This document shows positions 1-26,057 of a DNA stretch of 64,000 nt, piece by piece. The notes beneath the pieces were generated by a model that was not told the DNA's origin, did no database searches, and saw only the letters and a list, made by a program, of their open reading frames with translations. The DNA lies in contig OY843592.1 of the NCBI GenBank assembly GCA_963692865.2, positions 1,536,001-1,600,000 on the forward strand, read 5' to 3'. The translations under genes and the position numbers were made by a program. The DNA is from a bacterium (lineage in GTDB: Bacteria > UBA8248). Numbering within the stretch: the stretch's first letter is position 1; each line of letters opens with the position of its first letter.

Positions 1-1596
1 AAAACCGCGTCGGACGCCGCGAAAGCCGAGTATGATAAAGCTATGGCGGCAGACGTCACCGTCGCGGACGCCGAGGCGGCGCGGGACGAGGCGAAGAAAC
101 AAAACGGCATAGCCCAAGCGAACGACACGGGCGCCGGCGGCGCGGGTCCGCAGTATATGGCCGCGAAGGCCGCGGCGGACATGGCGGCGAAGGCGGCCAA
201 CACCCACGTCCTCGGGTTGTTCAAGATAGCGAACGCTTATCACATCGTGACGGCGGCCGATCCGGACGCCAACACGGATGACACGGAAGCCGGACTCATC
301 GCGAAGAACAAGGCTGCCCACGTGGACGCGGTGAGTTCCGCCATCGCCACGGCGGCAGCGGACGCGGACAACAGTCAGGGAACCACCAGCGTCACGGATC
401 ACAATACCGGCGGCGGGGCCTTTGACTCTACCGACGATACGGGAACCAGGTGGCCCTACAACGCCGACAACGACGCCACGAACGGTAGTGGCGACGGCAA
501 GATCACGGTCGTGGTAGATATCAATAACACGTCTTACACGACAACGCGGGACGACCCGAGCACCAAAGATACTGACGAAACCAACTTCACTTCAGAGGCG
601 GGTCTCGGCAGCTTCAACCACGGGTTCGAGATATCTCACGATACCGTCGAGCAAGGTGATGATAACACGAAGGTTGACGTGGGTGATACAAAGACCCGCA
701 TCCTCGTGTTCACGGACAAGAAACAGGGCAGCGCGAGGAAAGCCTCGGTTAACGTATCTATCAATAATCGCCCGGCTGTGGCCGGCCGGATACAGATAGG
801 TGCTACCGACACTGATTTAAGCAACGCTACTTACGACCACGACGGAGACGGGAAGAATTACCTCAGTGGCGCCACTTTCGCATGCCCAACCGGAACTGAT
901 TGCGACTATACAATTAGTGCTGGCAAGGTAACCACTATGACCGGTTACCGTGTCACCGTATCGGGCGTGATACCAGCGGTGAACCCCACGGAAGACCTGA
1001 GCTACCTTGCCTTCGGGATCTGGCTGCAGGAAACGCTGACGGCAGCCAACACCCCGAATACCTACCAATTCGGCGCCTTCGCCGACGGTGGGTCCGCGGT
1101 AACTGCAACTCTGGCGGGGGTTACAGGTGATGCGACCTACACGGGCAAGGCGGCGGGCGTCTACACCAACGGCGCCAAAGTCGATTACTTCGAGGGCGAC
1201 GCTAAGCTCACGGCCGACTTCGACGATTCGACCATCACCGGGATGATCAACAACATCGTGGCGGGCGGCGTGTCCATGACCGACGTCATCAACCTGAACG
1301 ACGATGGGACTCCTGCTGACGGCAACATTGGAAACGGCACCTTCAACGGAGACGCCCGGATGGGCACCGGCACGACGAAGGACAACGTCACGACGTATAC
1401 CTACAACGGCACCTGGAGCGGCCAATTCTACAATCCGGCCGATGAAGACGACGGCAATAATGCCATCAACAAGGCGCCCGGCTCCGCCGCCGGCACCTTC
1501 GGCGTTACCGGAACGGACAAAATGGGGACGCCGGACGACTCCAAGGACGACGTCACCACGAGTTACGTGGGCGCGTTCGGCGCGCACAAGCAGTAG
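1..1596 (+). CDS. TbpB-like (transferrin-binding-protein-like) surface protein, 5'-partial
   Basis: Frame is open from base 1. Ala-rich N-terminal stalk, then C-terminal beta-barrel motifs YLAFGIW, ATYTGKAAG, GTWSGQFY, AAGTFGV and terminal VGAFGAHKQ, typical of TbpB C-lobe/Slam-substrate barrels. Confidence 0.7.
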   Translation, partial: KTASDAAKAEYDKAMAADVTVADAEAARDEAKKQNGIAQANDTGAGGAGPQYMAAKAAADMAAKAANTHVLGLFKIANAYHIVTAADPDANTDDTEAGLIAKNKAAHVDAVSSAIATAAADADNSQGTTSVTDHNTGGGAFDSTDDTGTRWPYNADNDATNGSGDGKITVVVDINNTSYTTTRDDPSTKDTDETNFTSEAGLGSFNHGFEISHDTVEQGDDNTKVDVGDTKTRILVFTDKKQGSARKASVNVSINNRPAVAGRIQIGATDTDLSNATYDHDGDGKNYLSGATFACPTGTDCDYTISAGKVTTMTGYRVTVSGVIPAVNPTEDLSYLAFGIWLQETLTAANTPNTYQFGAFADGGSAVTATLAGVTGDATYTGKAAGVYTNGAKVDYFEGDAKLTADFDDSTITGMINNIVAGGVSMTDVINLNDDGTPADGNIGNGTFNGDARMGTGTTKDNVTTYTYNGTWSGQFYNPADEDDGNNAINKAPGSAAGTFGVTGTDKMGTPDDSKDDVTTSYVGAFGAHKQ

Positions 1597-3556: not shown

Positions 3557-4333
<777 letters not shown>

Positions 4334-6908: not shown

Positions 6909-8168
6909 ATGAGGAAAAATGAGTCGAAAAGGCTCCCTCTCATCCTCTTCCTGATATCGTTATCGCTGCACCTGTTCGTCTTCGCGGCCTCGAGCCATGA
7001 ATACGTTTGGAGAAAATCGGCCCGGACGAATCGACCCATCAAGTTTCAGTTGGTATCCGTCGAAAAACCCGAGCAAAAACTTCTCCCGAACCCCCGAAGC
7101 CGGTTTTTATCCAATGCCAACCGAAAAGAAAGTGGCTCCGGCAAACCCGGCAAGACCCCGCGCCTAAAGCGCGAATCTAAAGACCAGATTCCATCTCGTA
7201 GAGGTAGGCTCGGCCCTGAGATTGCGCCTTTAGCGCCGGTTCCAAAACCGAAGGGCCAAGTTCCAGCCCTCCCGCCGGCGAGTCCAAAACCCCCGGCAGT
7301 CGTAACGCCAAAACCTGAGCTTAGAAAGGCGGAAAAACCGAAGGAAAGGAAATCTCCCGCAACTTCGGAGATAACGGAAACGCCCCGGCCGACGGAGACG
7401 GCGAGCCTGGCGCCGGCGCCAAAGCCTTCGGTCAGGGCCCCGTCGCCCGCGATTCCCCAAAAGGCGCAACCGAAGGCAAAGCCGCCGGCGGATAAAAAGC
7501 CGGAGAGAGAAAAAATAGAGGCCGAAGCGATTCCGAAGATAAAGCGCAAGCCCAAACCGGTGGTCAGGAAGAAAACGGAAAAAGTGGTCGTAAAGAAAAA
7601 GCCCCGAGAGAAGAACAGGAAAGCCGAGGCGAAGAAAAAGACGAAGGAGAGGGTTGAACTGGCCGCGTTGAAACCGGTTTCTCGACCCGTCCGACCGCGC
7701 CGTCCAGTTCCGAAACAGCCACAACCGAAAGACCCTTTGGCGCTGTTTCGAGTGAAGCCCCGGCCCGAAAGTAAACCCGAGCGCCCCAAATTCGGGCTCT
7801 CGGACGAGGCGGCGGACAGAATCGCGAAAAGAAGTTTGCCGGATGAAGATCTGAAAAAAGAAGAAGGCGATGCCATTTCGCTCGACACGCGCGATTTTCG
7901 GTACGCCTCTTATTTCGCCCATATCAAGAGGCGAATCCAGAACGCCTGGATTTGGCCTGTGGAGGCGCAGAAAAACAGGGGCGAACTGTTGTTGCGCTTT
8001 AAGCTGAGAAAAAACGGAACTTTGGAGGAAGTGCGTCTGGTCAGGTCCGCAGGGGTTCGAATTCTCGATGATCTGGCGATGGCCGCCGTCACCAAGGCGG
8101 CGCCGTTCGAGCCGTTTCCGGCAGGTCTTGAACGCAAGCCGATTACCGCCACTTTCGTGTATGAGTGA
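6909..8168 (+). CDS. TonB/TolA-family energy transducer
   Basis: N-terminal TM with SLSLH motif, long Pro/Lys-rich linker, TonB_C domain (YFAHIKRRIQNAW...LDDLAMAAVTKAAPFEPFP). Confidence 0.85.
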   Translation: MRKNESKRLPLILFLISLSLHLFVFAASSHEYVWRKSARTNRPIKFQLVSVEKPEQKLLPNPRSRFLSNANRKESGSGKPGKTPRLKRESKDQIPSRRGRLGPEIAPLAPVPKPKGQVPALPPASPKPPAVVTPKPELRKAEKPKERKSPATSEITETPRPTETASLAPAPKPSVRAPSPAIPQKAQPKAKPPADKKPEREKIEAEAIPKIKRKPKPVVRKKTEKVVVKKKPREKNRKAEAKKKTKERVELAALKPVSRPVRPRRPVPKQPQPKDPLALFRVKPRPESKPERPKFGLSDEAADRIAKRSLPDEDLKKEEGDAISLDTRDFRYASYFAHIKRRIQNAWIWPVEAQKNRGELLLRFKLRKNGTLEEVRLVRSAGVRILDDLAMAAVTKAAPFEPFPAGLERKPITATFVYE

Positions 8169-11175: not shown

Positions 11176-11324
11176 CACTCCCCCCTTGAGGGGGAGTCAA
11201 CGAGGCAAGGGCGAAGCCCGCAGGCGAGTTGGTGGGGGGACATGCCACAGAAAAAGCTCCCCCCACCGAATCGGCCTTCGCACAAACCGCTCGGCCTCTT
11301 CGACTCCCCCTCAAGGGGGGAGTG
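11176..11324. repeat. 149-bp element with palindromic ends (cactccccccttgagggggagtc...gactccccctcaaggggggagtg)
   Basis: Same length and same ends as 25852-26000. Confidence 0.85.
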
Positions 11325-11804: not shown

Positions 11805-12506
11805 TTACCTGAACTCAATGCTTCCACTCAGCCATTCTTTGTTGATATCGGCACTATCGATACGCATGGCAATATCACCGATGTCCCCGATGTCCAATTC
11901 AATATGGTCGGTTCCAATGATGAGGGGCTCAAAGACAAATCTATACTCTCTTTGGTGGCTATATTCGTCGCGCTTTTTGAAAATGGCTTCTTTGTCGGAA
12001 AAACTTCCATGGAAAGTTTCCGGGTCATAGTATTCAATTAATCTTCGACCAAATCGATAACCTTCAGATTTCGCGCTTTTTTCAATACGGTTAAAAAATT
12101 CAGTAACATTTTTAACCACAACCGCATATTTTCCGAGTTCCAGGCAGGCTTCAGGTATCTCTAGTTGCTTTCTGAGGAGGCCGGTGTTTTCAGAAAATAT
12201 ATTTTCTAAACCCAGATCACCGGTGTGGCCTGCATACACACAATAAATACATAAATGATTAAGCCAGTTCTTTTGTATTTCAATTGGGCCATCGAGGTCA
12301 GGGGTGAAATCTATGCCATTTAATACAAGATGACCTTGATCGGGTTGAAGCCAACTAACAACGCCTTCATGCCTATCATTACGATTGGCGCTTTCTGTAT
12401 CTTCAATTTTTTTGAAATAAGACAAATTTTTTGCGTAAATTTTTCCTCCAATCAGGTCATTGACGTGCTGTTCTTCTTTCAAAAACTTCACAAGGAAAAA
12501 TATCAT
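11805..12506 (-). CDS. Hypothetical AT-rich accessory protein (DUF2971-like C-terminal motif)
   Basis: Long ORF with atypical AT-rich codon use; motif FKKRDEYSHQREYRF; start placed at MIFFLVKF. Confidence 0.7.
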   Translation of the reverse strand: MIFFLVKFLKEEQHVNDLIGGKIYAKNLSYFKKIEDTESANRNDRHEGVVSWLQPDQGHLVLNGIDFTPDLDGPIEIQKNWLNHLCIYCVYAGHTGDLGLENIFSENTGLLRKQLEIPEACLELGKYAVVVKNVTEFFNRIEKSAKSEGYRFGRRLIEYYDPETFHGSFSDKEAIFKKRDEYSHQREYRFVFEPLIIGTDHIELDIGDIGDIAMRIDSADINKEWLSGSIEFR

Positions 12507-12640
12507 TTTTGGATTTCGCCTCCGTTTGCGGCGCATTTATAGTCAGCCCGTTTACGAAAGACTGTGAGTCCATCCCACGATATAGGGATACAAAAACCTA
12601 TTCAATTATCCCCCCAAAACCATCGAACGCACCCACTCGG

Positions 12641-12790
12641 GAAGGCCATTTCCGAATCAATCAGGGCGAATGGTTAATTGAAGATGAAAGAAGAAGAAAG
12701 CGCCGGAAACGAGAGTTACCGCCATCGTGATTTCCATGGGCGAGGTCGAAATGGTAGAGTTTTTGAACGCCCCTCCTATGAACGGATAAA
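12641..12790 (+). pseudogene. Truncated, frameshifted 3' remnant of a DUF6338-like gene
   Basis: EGHFRINQGEWL and, in a shifted frame, TAIVISMGEVEMVEFL match EGHFRITEGEWL and SAILIPVGEVEMVEFV of 13014-13622. Confidence 0.8.
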
Positions 12791-12800
12791 GAGACGTATC

Positions 12801-12938
12801 ATGGCCAAGGAACGAACACCGAGCCCTTCAGAATCGCCGGGAAGTACCAAACTGAAAACAGGAGGCGTGTCTCCTAAACCCGAAGGCGCTTTCAAACCCA
12901 AACCGCCTCCCGCCCCGCCTCCCAAGAAAAGTGATTAG
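12801..12938 (+). CDS. Small Pro/Lys-rich peptide 1 (45 aa)
   Basis: MAKERTPSPSESPGSTKLKTGGVSPKPEGAFKPKPPPAPPPKKSD; paralog of 13626-13754 in the same relative position. Confidence 0.7.
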   Translation: MAKERTPSPSESPGSTKLKTGGVSPKPEGAFKPKPPPAPPPKKSD

Positions 12939-13013
12939 CACCTTGCGGTATTTCTGGAAGTAGCGAGCAGGTGAGCCGGGCCGTATTGGTCATATTATGG
13001 GGACATATAGCGT

Positions 13014-13622
13014 ATGAATTGGGCATCCGGTGGAATCGTCGATGCGCTCAAGTTTCTTCTGCCGGGGTTCGTGTCAGCCGCCATTTACTATTCGTTCACA
13101 TCGCACTCCAAACCCGGCGAGTTCGGCCTTGTCGTTCAAGCTCTGATTTTCACCATCGTCGGGGAAGCGGTAATCACGGCGCTCTTGTTAATGGACTCCT
13201 TCGCCTGGATGAAAGGCCGGGGAGTCGTATTATCCGTTCCGGTCGCGGTACTCCTCGGGTTGGTGGCCGCTTACTTTTCGAACAATGATACGGTGCATAG
13301 GCTATTTCGCCGGCTGGGCGTTACAAGGGAAACATCCTACCCCTCGGAATGGTATTCCACTTTTGCGCGTACCGATTGCTATGTCGTGCTACACCTGAAA
13401 GGTGAACGCCGTCTCTATGGATGGCCCGAAGAGTGGCCCAGCCGCCCGGACGAAGGTCATTTCCGAATCACGGAGGGAGAGTGGCTTTTCGAAACCGGAA
13501 CCGAGGATGAATACCAGAAGAAGATGCCCGCGACGGAAATTTCTGCTATCCTGATACCCGTGGGCGAGGTCGAAATGGTGGAGTTCGTGAGCGCTTCGCC
13601 TGATGAAGAAACGGAGGAGTAA
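13014..13622 (+). CDS. DUF6338-like membrane protein (N-terminal TM helices, C-terminal small beta-barrel)
   Basis: LLPGF N-terminal motif, about 3 hydrophobic segments, YVVLHLKGERRLYGWPEEWP...ILIPVGEVEMVEF. Confidence 0.75.
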   Translation: MNWASGGIVDALKFLLPGFVSAAIYYSFTSHSKPGEFGLVVQALIFTIVGEAVITALLLMDSFAWMKGRGVVLSVPVAVLLGLVAAYFSNNDTVHRLFRRLGVTRETSYPSEWYSTFARTDCYVVLHLKGERRLYGWPEEWPSRPDEGHFRITEGEWLFETGTEDEYQKKMPATEISAILIPVGEVEMVEFVSASPDEETEE

Positions 13623-13625
13623 ACA

Positions 13626-13754
13626 ATGGCCAAAGAACCGATACCGCCACCTTCGAAACGCTTTGTCCGGGTTGGTGATGGCGTATCGTCCAAGCCCAGG
13701 AATTTCGCCAAACCCAAGCCGCCTCCCGCACCGCCGCCCAAGAAGCAAGCCTGA
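13626..13754 (+). CDS. Small Pro/Lys-rich peptide 2 (42 aa)
   Basis: MAKEPIPPPSKRFVRVGDGVSSKPRNFAKPKPPPAPPPKKQA; GGAGGAG RBS, ATG 3 bp after the upstream stop; below the ORF-track cutoff. Confidence 0.75.
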   Translation: MAKEPIPPPSKRFVRVGDGVSSKPRNFAKPKPPPAPPPKKQA

Positions 13755-13933
13755 CGTTCAGCGGCGCGTTCAGACCGAAGTGAAAAGCGCGAGCGGCTCG
13801 CGAGCCGCGACCTCCAAATCATCACCGCCGCCGAACTCCCAAATACCCGCGCAGGTTATCGGGGTAACCCATCGCCGCCTCGCCTCCGGCCGTGGTCGTT
13901 CGCAAGATCGGAACCAGTTGAGCCGAAGTCGTA

Positions 13934-14019: not shown

Positions 14020-14484
14020 ATGATAGACACGGCAACCCGGTTCGCAACGGCGCTTCCCAGCCCTCGGGATGTGAGTCTCGCGCAGGCGTCCGCGCGGATG
14101 CTTACGCTAAAGCTCGGGGACCGTCCCGATAAGGTGGCGATTCGGCTCGCCGAGGATGAACGCGACGTCATTGAATTGCCCTTTGCGGCGGTTCGCCTGC
14201 TTATCGATCTGCTGGGCGAAATGTCCAAGGGCAACGCCGTATCGCTGATACCCATGAACGCGGAACTGACGACCCAGCAGGCTGCGGATTTGCTGAATGT
14301 CTCCCGGGGATTTCTCGTCAAACTTCTCGAGAATCGAGAGATACCCCATCGAATGGTCGGGACCCACAGGCGCGTTTTGTTCAACGACTTGAAGGCTTAT
14401 GAAGAGCGAACCAAACGGGCGCGCCTGAAGGCTCTGGACCGGCTTACGGAAGAGAGCCAGGAACTCGGAATCGGGTACGAGTAA
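14020..14484 (+). CDS. Excisionase-like HTH_17 DNA-binding protein (antitoxin)
   Basis: ELTTQQAADLLNVSRGFLVKLLE...VGTHRRV; start at MIDTATRF after GGGGAG RBS. Confidence 0.88.
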   Translation: MIDTATRFATALPSPRDVSLAQASARMLTLKLGDRPDKVAIRLAEDERDVIELPFAAVRLLIDLLGEMSKGNAVSLIPMNAELTTQQAADLLNVSRGFLVKLLENREIPHRMVGTHRRVLFNDLKAYEERTKRARLKALDRLTEESQELGIGYE

Positions 14485-14492
14485 GTTTCTGA

Positions 14493-15059
14493 ATGGCGTT
14501 TACCGCTCTGTTCGACGCCAATGTGCTGTTCCCGGCTCCGCTCCGCGACCTGCTGCTCCAGCTCGCGACCACCAAGCTGTTTCGCGCGCGCTGGTCGAAT
14601 GCGATCCACGAGGAATGGATGAGGGTCGCGAAGAAGACCAGACCGGACATCCCCGACACGAATTGGGATGAGCTTCGCAGGCTCATGGATGCGCACGCGG
14701 AGGATTGCCTCGTCACGGACTTCGAACCGCTAATCGAAACCCTCTCGCTCCCGGATCCGGATGACCGGCACGTACTGGCGGCGGCGATCGAGGGCCGGGC
14801 GGACGTCATCGTCACCTTCAATCTGAAACATTTCCCGGAAGCCGATTTGAACACATACGACCTCACCGCACAGCATCCGGATGTCTTTATCAGGCATTTG
14901 ATCGATATGGAGCCCGACGCCGTTGCGGAATCCGCCCGGATGGTGCGCGCCAGATTGAAGAAACCTTCCGTATCGGTCGACCAATATCTGAATACTCTTC
15001 ACAGGCAGGGACTGGTCGAAACCGTAACTAAGTTACGTTTGTTCCAAGAGGTTCTCTAA
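14493..15059 (+). CDS. PIN-domain protein (VapC-like toxin)
   Basis: DANVL, EEW, LPDPDDRHVLAAA, IVTFNLKHFP. Confidence 0.9.
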   Translation: MAFTALFDANVLFPAPLRDLLLQLATTKLFRARWSNAIHEEWMRVAKKTRPDIPDTNWDELRRLMDAHAEDCLVTDFEPLIETLSLPDPDDRHVLAAAIEGRADVIVTFNLKHFPEADLNTYDLTAQHPDVFIRHLIDMEPDAVAESARMVRARLKKPSVSVDQYLNTLHRQGLVETVTKLRLFQEVL

Positions 15060-15079: not shown

Positions 15080-15520
15080 CTATCCCCCGAGATACCCACT
15101 CAGATTCTCCAGGCACTCGGCCCAGCCTCCCCGGTGCTCGTCGCGCATGTTCTCGTCGGGGAATCCCTCGTGCGTCAGGACGACGGCGGTCTCATCGCCC
15201 TCCTGGGTGAAATCGACCCTCACCAGGGTTTCTGGATAATCCCAATCCCCCCGCTCCCAGCGGAAGGTGAAGACGAGACGCTCGGGAGGCCGTATCTCGA
15301 CGAACGCCCCGTTCAGGTAGAACGACTCCCCCTCGTCGGTCCGCATCTCGACGCGGTATTTTCCGCCGACGCTTACATCCATTTCGACCGAAGGCGCGGT
15401 GTGGCCCTCCGTTCCCCACCACTGCTTTAGCGCCTCGGCTTGCGTCCACGCGGCGAAGACTCTCTCCCTGGGCGCCTGGAAGGTTCGTTTGATGAGCAGC
15501 GTCATTTTCGTTTCGATCAT
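15080..15520 (-). CDS. SRPBCC/AHSA1-domain protein
   Basis: RTFQAPRERVFAAWT, PPERLVFTF, HRGGW. Confidence 0.9.
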   Translation of the reverse strand: MIETKMTLLIKRTFQAPRERVFAAWTQAEALKQWWGTEGHTAPSVEMDVSVGGKYRVEMRTDEGESFYLNGAFVEIRPPERLVFTFRWERGDWDYPETLVRVDFTQEGDETAVVLTHEGFPDENMRDEHRGGWAECLENLSGYLGG

Positions 15521-15867
15521 TTTTGAGTCTCCGTGTCTGTCGTTTCATCGAGATATCGGGCGAGGGAATCGAGTCCCTCCTCCCAGAACCGTTTGTGGAA
15601 ATCGAGCCATTCGGACGCCTCGCGCATCGCTTCGGCCTTGAGGCTCAGACGATGGACGCGGCCCCTTTTCTCTCTATGGATCAGGCCGGCGCGCTCGAGA
15701 ACGCGCAGGTGCTTCGAAATCGCCGGCAGGGAAATATCGAATGGCGCGGCGAGGCCGGTGACGGTCGCTTCTCCCCGGGAGAGACGCGAGAGGATGGCCC
15801 GCCTCGTGGGGTCGGAAAGCGCGGAAAAAGTCGCGTCGAGACCGGCTTGCGCGTTCATGATCGGCAT
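15517..15867 (-). CDS. ArsR/SmtB family regulator
   Basis: FSALSDPTRRAIL, ISLPAISKHLRVLERAGLI. Confidence 0.92.
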   Translation of the reverse strand: MPIMNAQAGLDATFSALSDPTRRAILSRLSRGEATVTGLAAPFDISLPAISKHLRVLERAGLIHREKRGRVHRLSLKAEAMREASEWLDFHKRFWEEGLDSLARYLDETTDTETQK

Positions 15868-15959: not shown

Positions 15960-16039
15960 CACTCCCCCTCAAGGGGGGAGTGAACTTCCAAAGCGTGCGC
16001 GCAACCCAAATCGCTTCCCGGGACTTTTTCAACAATCCC
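15960..16039. repeat. About 80-bp copy of the right half of the 25786-26057 element
   Basis: Nearly identical to 25979-26057. Confidence 0.8.
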
Positions 16040-25785: not shown

Positions 25786-26057
25786 GGGGTTGTTGAAAAA
25801 GTCCTTTCGGATCGAGCCGAACCATTCTCCCCTTGCAAAGCCCTCAACAACCACTCCCCCCTTGAGGGGGAGTCAACGCGGCAAGGACAATGTCCGCAGC
25901 CGCGTTGGTGGGGGGGGAGCTTTTTACTGTGGCAGTCCCCCCACCAGCTCGACTTCGGGCTTCGCCCTCGTCTCTCTGACTCCCCCTCAAGGGGGGAGTG
26001 AACTTCAAAAGCGAGCGCGCAACCGAAATCGCTTCCTAGAGGTTTTTCAACAACCCC
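25786..26057. mobile_element. MITE-like element, perfect 15-bp terminal inverted repeats, carrying a nested 149-bp element
   Basis: ggggttgttgaaaaa ... tttttcaacaacccc; inner 25852-26000 matches the ends and length of 11176-11324. Confidence 0.75.

Follow-up and report, generated by a model that had tools for sequence, protein, structure and literature searches.

A DUF6338 membrane protein and a small polyproline-tailed basic protein constitute a recurrent, mobile two-gene module in bacteria

When a gene for a small membrane protein is followed by a very short proline-rich open reading frame (ORF), and the same arrangement stands beside it in decayed form, the question arises whether the two genes belong together or are neighbors by chance. 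The locus that raises this question lies in a window of 64,000 nucleotides (nt) from a bacterium of the GTDB lineage UBA8248 (assembly GCA_963692865.2, contig OY843592.1, positions 1,536,001 to 1,600,000). It contains one intact gene and one remnant gene of the DUF6338 family (Pfam PF19865), each with a gene for a short, basic, proline-rich peptide directly behind it. A first interpretation made from the letters of the window, referred to here as the sequence-only reading, had proposed a dedicated pair of peptide and membrane protein. The results presented here reveal that the pairing recurs across distant phyla, on viral contigs, on a plasmid and in an Escherichia coli prophage, and in naturally fused form. 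It is very probable that DUF6338 and the peptide are a real co-functional pair.

All four elements of the window locus lie on the + strand, in the order remnant, peptide 1, intact DUF6338 gene and peptide 2, as originally described. The remnant (12620..12789) is the frameshifted 3' end of a second DUF6338 copy and corresponds to approximately residues 138-196 of the full-length protein; it has a gap of 13 nt and changes frame. A tblastn search with the intact protein as the query recovered its pieces in two different frames, at 12620-12682 (residues 138-160, 61%) and 12691-12777 (residues 168-196, 59%). Three-frame translations agree with this frame change and place the stop of the remnant at 12787-12789. 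The remnant begins slightly earlier than first supposed; position 12641 is the onset of DNA-level repeat identity. Eleven nt behind the stop of the remnant starts the gene for peptide 1 (12801..12938; ATG at 12801, stop at 12936-12938), which encodes 45 amino acids, MAKERTPSPSESPGSTKLKTGGVSPKPEGAFKPKPPPAPPPKKSD, with a net charge of +5. In the ORF listing peptide 1 is only the end of an 86-amino-acid ORF with a TTG start (12678..12938). The intact DUF6338 gene (13014..13622) encodes 202 amino acids, for which three membrane helices, then two short helices and a five-stranded Sm-like barrel are predicted. The protein is a member of PF19865, as confirmed on the genome: it matches well above the curated cut-off (E 1.7e-11, 44.5 bits versus 26.5) and over most of the profile, with residues 12-196 on profile positions 12-204/205. 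The gene for peptide 2 (13626..13754) starts 3 nt past the DUF6338 stop, is present in the ORF list and encodes 42 amino acids, MAKEPIPPPSKRFVRVGDGVSSKPRNFAKPKPPPAPPPKKQA, with a net charge of +8. A Shine-Dalgarno-like GGAGGAG (13613..13619, + strand) lies within the last (E-E) codons of the DUF6338 gene, with the ATG of peptide 2 following 6 nt on. Peptide 2 aligns with the peptide family described below, and its close relatives P0123, P0126 and P0131 have been called as proteins in public data. Both window peptides have MAKE, GVSxKP and an identical KPKPPPAPPPKK. Both are shorter than 50 amino acids, basic and proline-rich, end in a proline run with lysine or arginine, and are encoded on the same strand directly after the DUF6338 gene or its remnant.

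The DUF6338 family is large. Among 1765 candidates of similar length, 1357 relatives were found at E<=1e-3, and a profile search of 1.84 billion representatives returned 1302 at E<=1e-3, 855 at 1e-10 and 340 at 1e-30. The best 80 of 124 confirmed loci in species-representative genomes, with 40-64% identity to the window protein, served as the locus set. By their labels, these loci include Binatia, Dehalococcoidia and other Chloroflexota, Alpha- and Gammaproteobacteria, Acidobacteriota, Nitrospinota, Nitrospirales, Opitutales and Rhodothermales. The flanks of these homologs were scanned, a check that the sequence-only reading had suggested, for ORFs of 18-90 amino acids that start between -100 and +600 of the match end and contain at least 6 prolines in a 9-residue window within the last 25 residues. 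A polyproline-tail ORF lies downstream of DUF6338 in 75 of the 80 loci by this strict scan, versus none on the opposite strand (0/80) and none in other same-strand windows of the same loci (0/154). In one of the five loci missed by the scan the contig ends inside the peptide (L042), and the other four (L055, L074, L063 and L076) have weaker or longer tails that are recognizable by eye. The number of tail ORFs in the 75 loci is one in 61, two in 12, three in 1 and four in 1. In 60 of the 72 loci with single-frame matches, the start of the tail ORF falls between -20 and +30 nt relative to the DUF6338 stop; the commonest spacer between stop and start is 3 nt (24/72), followed by an 8-nt overlap (9/72).

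The peptides constitute a recognizable family with a median length of 42.5 amino acids, a median net charge of +7 and a median proline content of 35%. The longest proline run has a mode of nine (28 of 92 tail ORFs) and reaches at least eight residues in 47 of the 92; lysine or arginine follows the run in 86. The family alignment yields a consensus of MAKEPNPPPSRR, approximately 8 variable residues, GVSPKP, 4 further residues and KPPPPPPPPPKK. Public gene calls sometimes include the peptides (65 matches at E<=0.01), and none of these 65 relatives has a Pfam domain or a functional name. Several loci depart from the common form. A variant peptide without a long proline run, MAKVPNL(A/S)PSNRGKG.KGASQKPLNIK(R/K)PP(L/I)P(V/A)IKR, is encoded at L032 3604-3714, in tandem with a canonical polyproline peptide, and alone in two copies in L063, at 3608-3718 and from 3764 onward. 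In L010 a second peptide gene (3939-4112) stands approximately 310 nt behind the first and is preceded by an in-frame relic resembling the DUF6338 C terminus (VEYPEQPERT); this combination of relic and peptide recalls the window arrangement in the opposite order. The DUF6338 genes of L045, L047, L072 and L112 contain a frame change, with tblastn pieces in two frames, or an internal TGA and may be pseudogenes or assembly errors; the peptide ORF is intact in L045, L047 and L072. Among the window and the 80 loci, a second partial DUF6338 copy was detected only in the window (tblastn, E<=1e-3).

If the small ORF matters as a protein, its codons should bear the mark of selection, as the sequence-only reading had concluded from the two window copies. 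The 36 nt that encode KPKPPPAPPPKK in the two peptides differ at 4 sites, all at third positions and all synonymous; the flanking duplicated DNA of the tandem copies is only 73-76% identical. The same holds across the family. In 50 sequences chosen solely for starting with MAK, the entropy at codon positions 1, 2 and 3 of the N-terminal codons 2-12 is 0.79, 0.81 and 1.66 bits. In the tail block (93 sequences) it is 0.60, 0.50 and 1.68 bits; here positions 1 and 2 are partly fixed by the choice of sequences, but the near-maximal third-position variation is not. Polyproline is retained even in a genome with a guanine-plus-cytosine (GC) content of 37% (L110). These codon patterns indicate that selection acts on the peptide as a protein.

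A same-genus genome, G032, carries the identical layout of remnant, peptide 1, intact gene and peptide 2 at locus L096, with the remnant at 1064..1210 and an intact peptide 1 ortholog at 1271..1408. Comparison of this genome with the window genome by the Nei-Gojobori method gave a ratio of nonsynonymous to synonymous change (dN/dS) of 0.05 for peptide 2 (Nd 5.5, Sd 19.5), 0.18 for DUF6338 and 0.38 for peptide 1 (Nd 14, Sd 11). Constraint on peptide 2 is very strong. Peptide 1 is open in both species and more weakly constrained, and in G032 part of its tail motif is gone (PLPNK). The earlier observation that peptide 1 stayed intact beside a decayed partner thus extends to a second genome, with the qualification that the constraint on it is weaker. 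The DUF6338 part of the G032 remnant (L096 1050-1420 versus 1870-2240) is nearly identical to the intact copy of the same genome, and the two peptide genes remain orthologous between G032 and the window, a pattern indicative of gene conversion within the tandem pair, which would have stopped before the peptide.

What the membrane protein might do with such a partner is suggested by its predicted fold. The AlphaFold2 model of the window protein was built with 33 homologs and has a mean predicted local distance difference test score (pLDDT) of 74. It contains hydrophobic helices at residues 3-28, 36-66 and 70-90, short helices at 93-100 and 111-117, and strands at 122-128, 132-140, 149-159, 178-182 and 186-193. 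A Foldseek search of the PDB returned Sm/LSm proteins at E 5e-4 to 5e-3. A VIA search returned Sm, LSm and Hfq chains with Z from 8.5 to about 6 and a root mean square deviation of 2.0-2.4 A over 60-76 residues, covering model residues 104-196. A Z near 8 can reflect a common arrangement of elements, but here Foldseek and VIA agree and whole Sm chains are covered. The predicted structure has the elements of the Sm fold, a strongly bent antiparallel sheet of five strands behind an N-terminal helix. The C-terminal domain (approximately residues 104-196) is therefore predicted to be an Sm/LSm-like barrel, in keeping with the small Sm/SH3-like beta-barrel that the sequence-only reading had anticipated. 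At the level of sequence the domain does not group with these proteins: identity with the structural Sm/LSm/Hfq matches is 8-16%, and neither LSM nor Hfq is among the Pfam matches at E<=1. There is no Pfam match to SH3 either, and the top 50 structural rows are all Sm/LSm/Hfq and none SH3. The SH3 and Sm fold classes are related, and an SH3-like mode of working is possible for the barrel. The barrel region carries a net charge of -13 and 13 aromatic residues in 103, with a family median charge of -8 (n=62), and the family conserves the motifs GWPEEWP, GHF and EWL. The segment past the third helix, HRLFRRLGVTRE, is strongly basic. By the positive-inside rule this would place the barrel in the cytoplasm, and the Sm-like domain probably faces that side.

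A physical link between the two products is suggested by fused forms. Of 150 listed representatives, 51 are at least 232 amino acids long; 3 of these have proline-rich C-terminal extensions, and many other long members have disordered tails that end in a cluster of basic residues. P0220 (248 amino acids) is an in-frame fusion of DUF6338 and peptide, in which residues 207-246 cover the peptide profile from end to end (hhalign probability 85%, E 5.9e-6). Its exact sequence occurs on 9 contigs, which argues for a natural fusion and against a single sequencing slip. Another fusion, P0247, is partial, since only its tail aligns to the peptide profile. Among the 120 nearest homologs no fusion was found, as not one has a run of at least four prolines. 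In the AlphaFold2 model of unaltered P0220 (49 homologs, mean pLDDT 86), the linker 201-230 is at 54-60 and the last 18 residues, the polyproline-KK end, are at 82-86. The high score of the tail is suggestive of docking. The charges of the partners are complementary, with the acidic C-terminal domain (-13 here, median -8) opposed to a peptide median of +7, and KPKPPPAPPPKK of both window peptides fits the PxxP-plus-basic ligand pattern. A complex prediction from the DUF6338 and peptide alignments scored 0.02 versus a mark of 0.32; it was run without controls and counts neither for nor against binding. On balance, direct binding of the peptide to DUF6338 is slightly favored. The sequence-only reading had suggested that the barrel could bind the PxxP-rich tail, as a sensor/ligand, toxin/antitoxin or pore/plug system, any one of which may apply.

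The distribution of the pair is patchy. The family is present in 6 of 51 genomes of the phylum of the window and in 5 of 23 genomes of its genus, the window's own genome included. A sample of 400 genomes from another class contains it in 15, and at all 15 loci, one of them from a genome of 37% GC, a small basic proline-containing ORF stands behind DUF6338; at one locus of this survey that has an internal stop, the ORF behind is degenerate. A second copy in an alphaproteobacterial genome, which fits the Pfam profile better, is also followed by a small basic proline-containing ORF. The pair occurs on 9 IMG/VR viral contigs (36-43% identity), with the peptide in 9 of 9, and on the three that are annotated it lies between recombination/SSB genes and DNA methyltransferases or an integrase. 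On the Paludisphaera borealis plasmid NZ_CP019084 a 49-amino-acid ORF ending RPLPTPPPPPPKQS (L091 4692-4841) overlaps the end of an annotated 238-amino-acid DUF6338 ORF, near an integrase and a ParDE pair. Directly upstream at this plasmid locus, on the same strand, are genes for an S8 peptidase and an ATP-binding protein. In E. coli NZ_CM132959 the pair (L116, with the peptide ORF at approximately 7581-7718) is situated in the nin region of a lambdoid prophage; in this species it occurs in one strain, represented by 2 records of 5426 genomes. The peptide ORF is absent from the RefSeq/PLSDB annotation of both the prophage and the plasmid. A tblastn search of the GenBank phage collection, with the window protein or a viral-contig homolog as the query, gave no match, and DUF6338 has no PHROG match. 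In the ESM Atlas, the nearest clusters that are not in PF19865 consist of hypothetical proteins without names, some of them viral, and serve as leads only. A fold search of BFVD with the P0220 model returned, besides many Sm-like domains of phages, one full-length match to an uncharacterized siphovirus protein (E 1.6e-7), none of these matches with a function name. Flanking gene families are each limited to at most 10 of 81 loci, and co-directional downstream families to at most 5 of 81, which indicates that the module stands alone. DUF6338 and the peptide gene are a self-contained, horizontally mobile two-gene module.

One instance of this module has been seen before. PMC10433244 (Anal Chem 2023) describes three small ORFs (36, 47 and 41 amino acids) behind a 194-amino-acid DUF6338 gene of Pseudomonas stutzeri. 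The products, SEP1, SEP5 and SEP2, end in ...PPPPKK, ...PPPPPKRDSK and ...PPPPPKKGG. Digest-free mass spectrometry identified each of them, with 85, 114 and 44 peptide-spectrum matches and 98-100% coverage. The architecture is the same, with a DUF6338 gene of about 194 amino acids followed at once by proline-rich basic ORFs of 36-47 amino acids. The authors consider the peptides not conserved beyond P. stutzeri and possibly de novo, propose no function, raise an antimicrobial role and state that DUF6338 occurs in biosynthetic clusters. The present data agree that the peptides are translated and disagree that they are not conserved. To that sighting they add conservation across phyla, the three-motif architecture, the fusions, and the prophage and plasmid copies. 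The earlier statement that the pair has no described function stands, although such peptides had already been detected beside a DUF6338 gene (PMC10433244). Literature searches turned up no account of the pair as a conserved system and none of a function.

The pair is far from every characterized kind of system; the nearest ones compare as follows. The C-terminal domain superposes on whole Sm, LSm and Hfq chains, but it is tethered to three membrane helices and has no Pfam LSM match. Eukaryotic Sm proteins also have basic or proline-rich C-terminal tails. To our knowledge, GWPEEWP, GHF and EWL are not the Sm1 and Sm2 motifs. The nearest known joining of three membrane helices to an Sm-like domain is found in MscS-type channels, where the Sm-like domain lies in the cytoplasm behind the helices and assembles into a heptameric ring. 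DUF6338 is much smaller and lacks the alpha-beta domain, and MscS has no partner peptide. There is no MS_channel match in Pfam at E<=1, and no MscS chain is among the listed Foldseek and VIA rows, which are filled by free Sm proteins. The resemblance to SH3 domains and their PxxP ligands lies in a small beta-barrel rich in tryptophan, tyrosine and acidic residues and a ligand-like K-P-x-P-P-P-x-P-P-P-K-K; the structural matches of the window domain are Sm/LSm and not SH3. Lambda RexAB is a prophage-encoded two-part membrane exclusion system. Like RexAB, the module is small, occupies accessory slots of temperate phages and consists of a multi-pass membrane protein and a cytoplasmic partner. There is no sequence similarity, as judged by the lack of a PADLOC match and of a PHROG match for DUF6338, and the partner of DUF6338 is a disordered peptide of 40 amino acids. 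Arrest peptides (SecM, MifM and the RAPP type; PMC10987492 and PMC12992588) likewise combine a short, stall-prone, proline-containing C terminus with a neighboring membrane-related gene. They lie upstream of the gene they regulate, whereas the DUF6338 peptide lies downstream, is conserved over its full length and is a stable product in P. stutzeri (PMC10433244). By position it does not fit the arrest-peptide class, since the ORF is downstream of DUF6338 and the commonest co-directional family downstream is shared by 5 of 81 loci. Neither DUF6338 nor the peptides match a known toxin or antitoxin family in Pfam or PADLOC, and the pair is not assignable to a type II toxin-antitoxin family.

The observations can be combined into the following model. 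DUF6338 would reside in the inner membrane by its three helices, with the acidic, aromatic-rich Sm-like domain in the cytoplasm. The translationally coupled small gene makes a disordered, strongly basic protein with the motifs MAKEPNPPPSRR, GVSPKP and KPPPPPxPPPKK, which would serve the Sm-like domain as a regulatory subunit or a detachable C-terminal tail. The polyproline-lysine end of this protein may dock on the acidic, tryptophan-rich surface formed by GWPEEWP, GHF and EWL, and the membrane protein may form an Sm-type ring. The pair would provide mobile elements with an accessory function at the membrane, and extra peptide genes such as peptide 1 would be paralogous spare partners that arose by tandem duplication. 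The likeliest roles for such a pair would be phage exclusion, abortive infection or a toxin-antitoxin-like control in which the peptide restrains the membrane protein. The presence of the module in temperate-phage accessory slots and on plasmids makes a phage exclusion or addiction role plausible. The evidence for the combined model, in which the peptide is a tail or subunit of an Sm-like domain in a mobile membrane module, is judged to be evenly balanced; a defence or addiction role is a tentative proposal, held somewhat below that.

Several observations weigh against the model. There are 1-4 peptide genes per membrane gene, and three in P. stutzeri, which is odd for a 1:1 partner or an antitoxin. 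The best Pfam-fitting members of the sample (L097, L102 and L103) are accompanied by small ORFs poorer in proline, which still share a G-Y-x-P motif. Proline-rich fused tails are found in only 3 of the 150 listed representatives, and the pLDDT of the polyproline end may reflect local regularity and not docking, there being no control for an isolated stretch. Across loci, the charges of domain and peptide covary weakly and without statistical significance (Spearman -0.20, p 0.12, n=62). The sequence-only reading had placed the locus in a defence-type islet. Restriction, defence, toxin or transposase genes are the nearest downstream genes in 11 of 77 loci, which keeps part of that claim, but the context varies between loci and the rest of these genes are metabolic or lack a Pfam match; PADLOC-DB 2.0.0 contains 0 families that match DUF6338 or either peptide at E<=0.1. 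Finally, the P. stutzeri peptides were abundant where DUF6338 went undetected, in a study that did not analyze membrane fractions (PMC10433244).

The count of peptide genes also lends itself to a different explanation, that the peptides are themselves the active product. They could be exported or bioactive proline-rich cationic peptides, similar to proline-rich antimicrobial peptides (PrAMPs) or bacteriocins, or signals, with DUF6338 providing immunity, export or reception. Tandem peptide arrays beside one small membrane protein are what such a system would have (14 of 80 loci with 2-4 peptide genes, and three in P. stutzeri), as are a variable middle between conserved ends and an orphan peptide kept beside a truncated membrane gene. 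The abundance of the peptides without detectable DUF6338, the antimicrobial role raised by the P. stutzeri authors and the reported occurrence of DUF6338 in biosynthetic clusters, all from PMC10433244, are consistent with it as well. Yet inspection of the family alignment reveals no signal peptide, double-glycine leader or hydrophobic stretch, and no transporter, protease or modifying enzyme is conserved nearby, as no flanking family exceeds 10 of 81 loci. An in-frame fusion to the cytoplasmic end of DUF6338 is unfit for a secreted product, and a nine-proline run flanked by lysine is unlike the alternating proline and arginine of known PrAMPs. Peptides as the active product are unlikely. Another idea is that the peptides mimic eukaryotic polyproline ligands (of SH3, WW, EVH1 or profilin) for symbionts on host cells, with DUF6338 as an accessory. 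Many carriers, as labelled, are metagenome-assembled genomes of host-associated lineages, the tail fits the PxxP-plus-basic pattern and some viral-contig versions have PPPY. No secretion signal or secretion-system gene is conserved nearby, however, the tight coupling to a bacterial membrane protein is left unexplained, and the pair is also present in free-living P. stutzeri, on the plasmid of a peat-bog planctomycete, in an E. coli prophage and in genomes of another class. Host mimicry is highly improbable.

A further possibility is that the small ORF is chiefly a translational device, in which a polyproline stall in the absence of active elongation factor P (EF-P) tunes how stable the DUF6338 mRNA is or how strongly it is expressed, or senses translational capacity, and the peptide itself has no role. 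Runs of the length seen here (at least eight prolines in 47 of 92 tail ORFs, with nine the mode) are among the strongest EF-P-dependent stalls, as is established (PMC11611912 and PMC5811046). The run stands 2-4 codons before the stop, and the start is coupled to the stop of DUF6338. Stalling as the whole function does not account for conservation at the protein level outside the run (MAKEP.PPPS.R, GVSPKP, the flanking K and KK), for the fused forms, or for the accumulation of full-length peptides in P. stutzeri (PMC10433244). Known arrest peptides are moreover upstream, and here the ORF is downstream, with at most 5 of 81 loci sharing a co-directional downstream family. A peptide without a role of its own is quite unlikely. 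Stalling can coexist with the model of a tail or subunit, as a 'fuse' layered on a binding partner. In a bolder form, the module would be a novel type of membrane effector borne by prophages, plasmids and islets, in which a membrane-tethered ring, assembled through the Sm-like domains of DUF6338, could open the membrane and the polyproline-KK peptide would plug or clamp it. Synthesis of nine prolines would require EF-P and healthy ribosomes, and an attack on translation, such as phage takeover, would halt the peptide first and free the effector. Abortive infection would then be triggered by failed polyproline translation, with spare paralogs such as peptide 1 setting the threshold. This extension is a long shot. 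The tail-or-subunit model remains the best combined explanation of the locus.

The surroundings of the module in the window contain further elements. A tentative promoter-like TTCAAA-17-TATCAT (12478..12506, + strand) lies 5' of the remnant and peptide 1; it comes from a consensus scan only, which found 4 sites versus 1.3 expected and gives no evidence of function. A terminator scan found no convincing terminator on the + strand 3' of peptide 2. No Rfam family reaches the gathering score between 9000 and 17000. A tRNA was not found either. A search for sequencing runs that contain 12600-13800 listed no RNA run and four DNA-type rows from one study. Abutting the truncated DUF6338 copy is a 243-amino-acid ORF (11805..12536, - strand) of a phage-associated family of unknown function (phrog_26561, E 2.2e-37), without a Pfam or PADLOC match. 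Its GC content is 39-42% versus 55-60% around it, and in G032 it is absent at this site, where a 296-amino-acid ORF takes its place. The low-GC ORF was probably inserted later. Immediately 3' of the module, on the + strand, is a toxin-antitoxin-like pair of an HTH_17 protein (14020..14484, Pfam E 1.3e-10) and a PIN_3 protein (14493..15059, Pfam E 4.2e-12), the latter ORF starting 9 nt past the former; the HTH_17 protein has a weak mad1-like PADLOC match (E 4.7e-4).

Two further observations concern the wider neighborhood. On the - strand at 15080-15867, two co-directional small ORFs of 146 and 116 amino acids share a 4-nt overlap; judged by eye, the upstream 116-amino-acid product may resemble an ArsR-type helix-turn-helix regulator. 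A 21-nt near-palindrome, ACTCCCCCTCAAGGGGGGAGT, occurs in the window at 11177-11197 (-), 11303-11323 (+), 15961-15981 (+), 25853-25873 (-) and 25979-25999 (+), that is 5 copies versus 0 expected. The 4.15-Mb genome contains 108 copies (58 forward, 50 reverse) versus 0 for the reversed control. The copies often form inverted pairs approximately 126-140 nt apart, similar to a small element of the repetitive extragenic palindromic (REP) or miniature inverted-repeat transposable element (MITE) kind. The islet with the DUF6338 module has a full element to its left and half an element to its right.

The findings change what can be said of the family. Annotation pipelines for the most part overlook the obligate partner gene of DUF6338, a family that comprises approximately 1,300 representative clusters (50% identity), and the partner is among the most extreme natural polyproline sequences encoded by bacteria. 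What the P. stutzeri study presents as an isolated proteomic curiosity, species-specific and possibly de novo, becomes a conserved, mobile two-component system. Several questions are now testable, including the role of a membrane-tethered Sm-like domain in bacteria, bacterial recognition of polyproline in trans, similar to that by eukaryotic adaptor domains, and the use of EF-P-dependent translation as a sensor. A role in phage exclusion or addiction, if true, would add a type of component that is absent from current defence catalogs.

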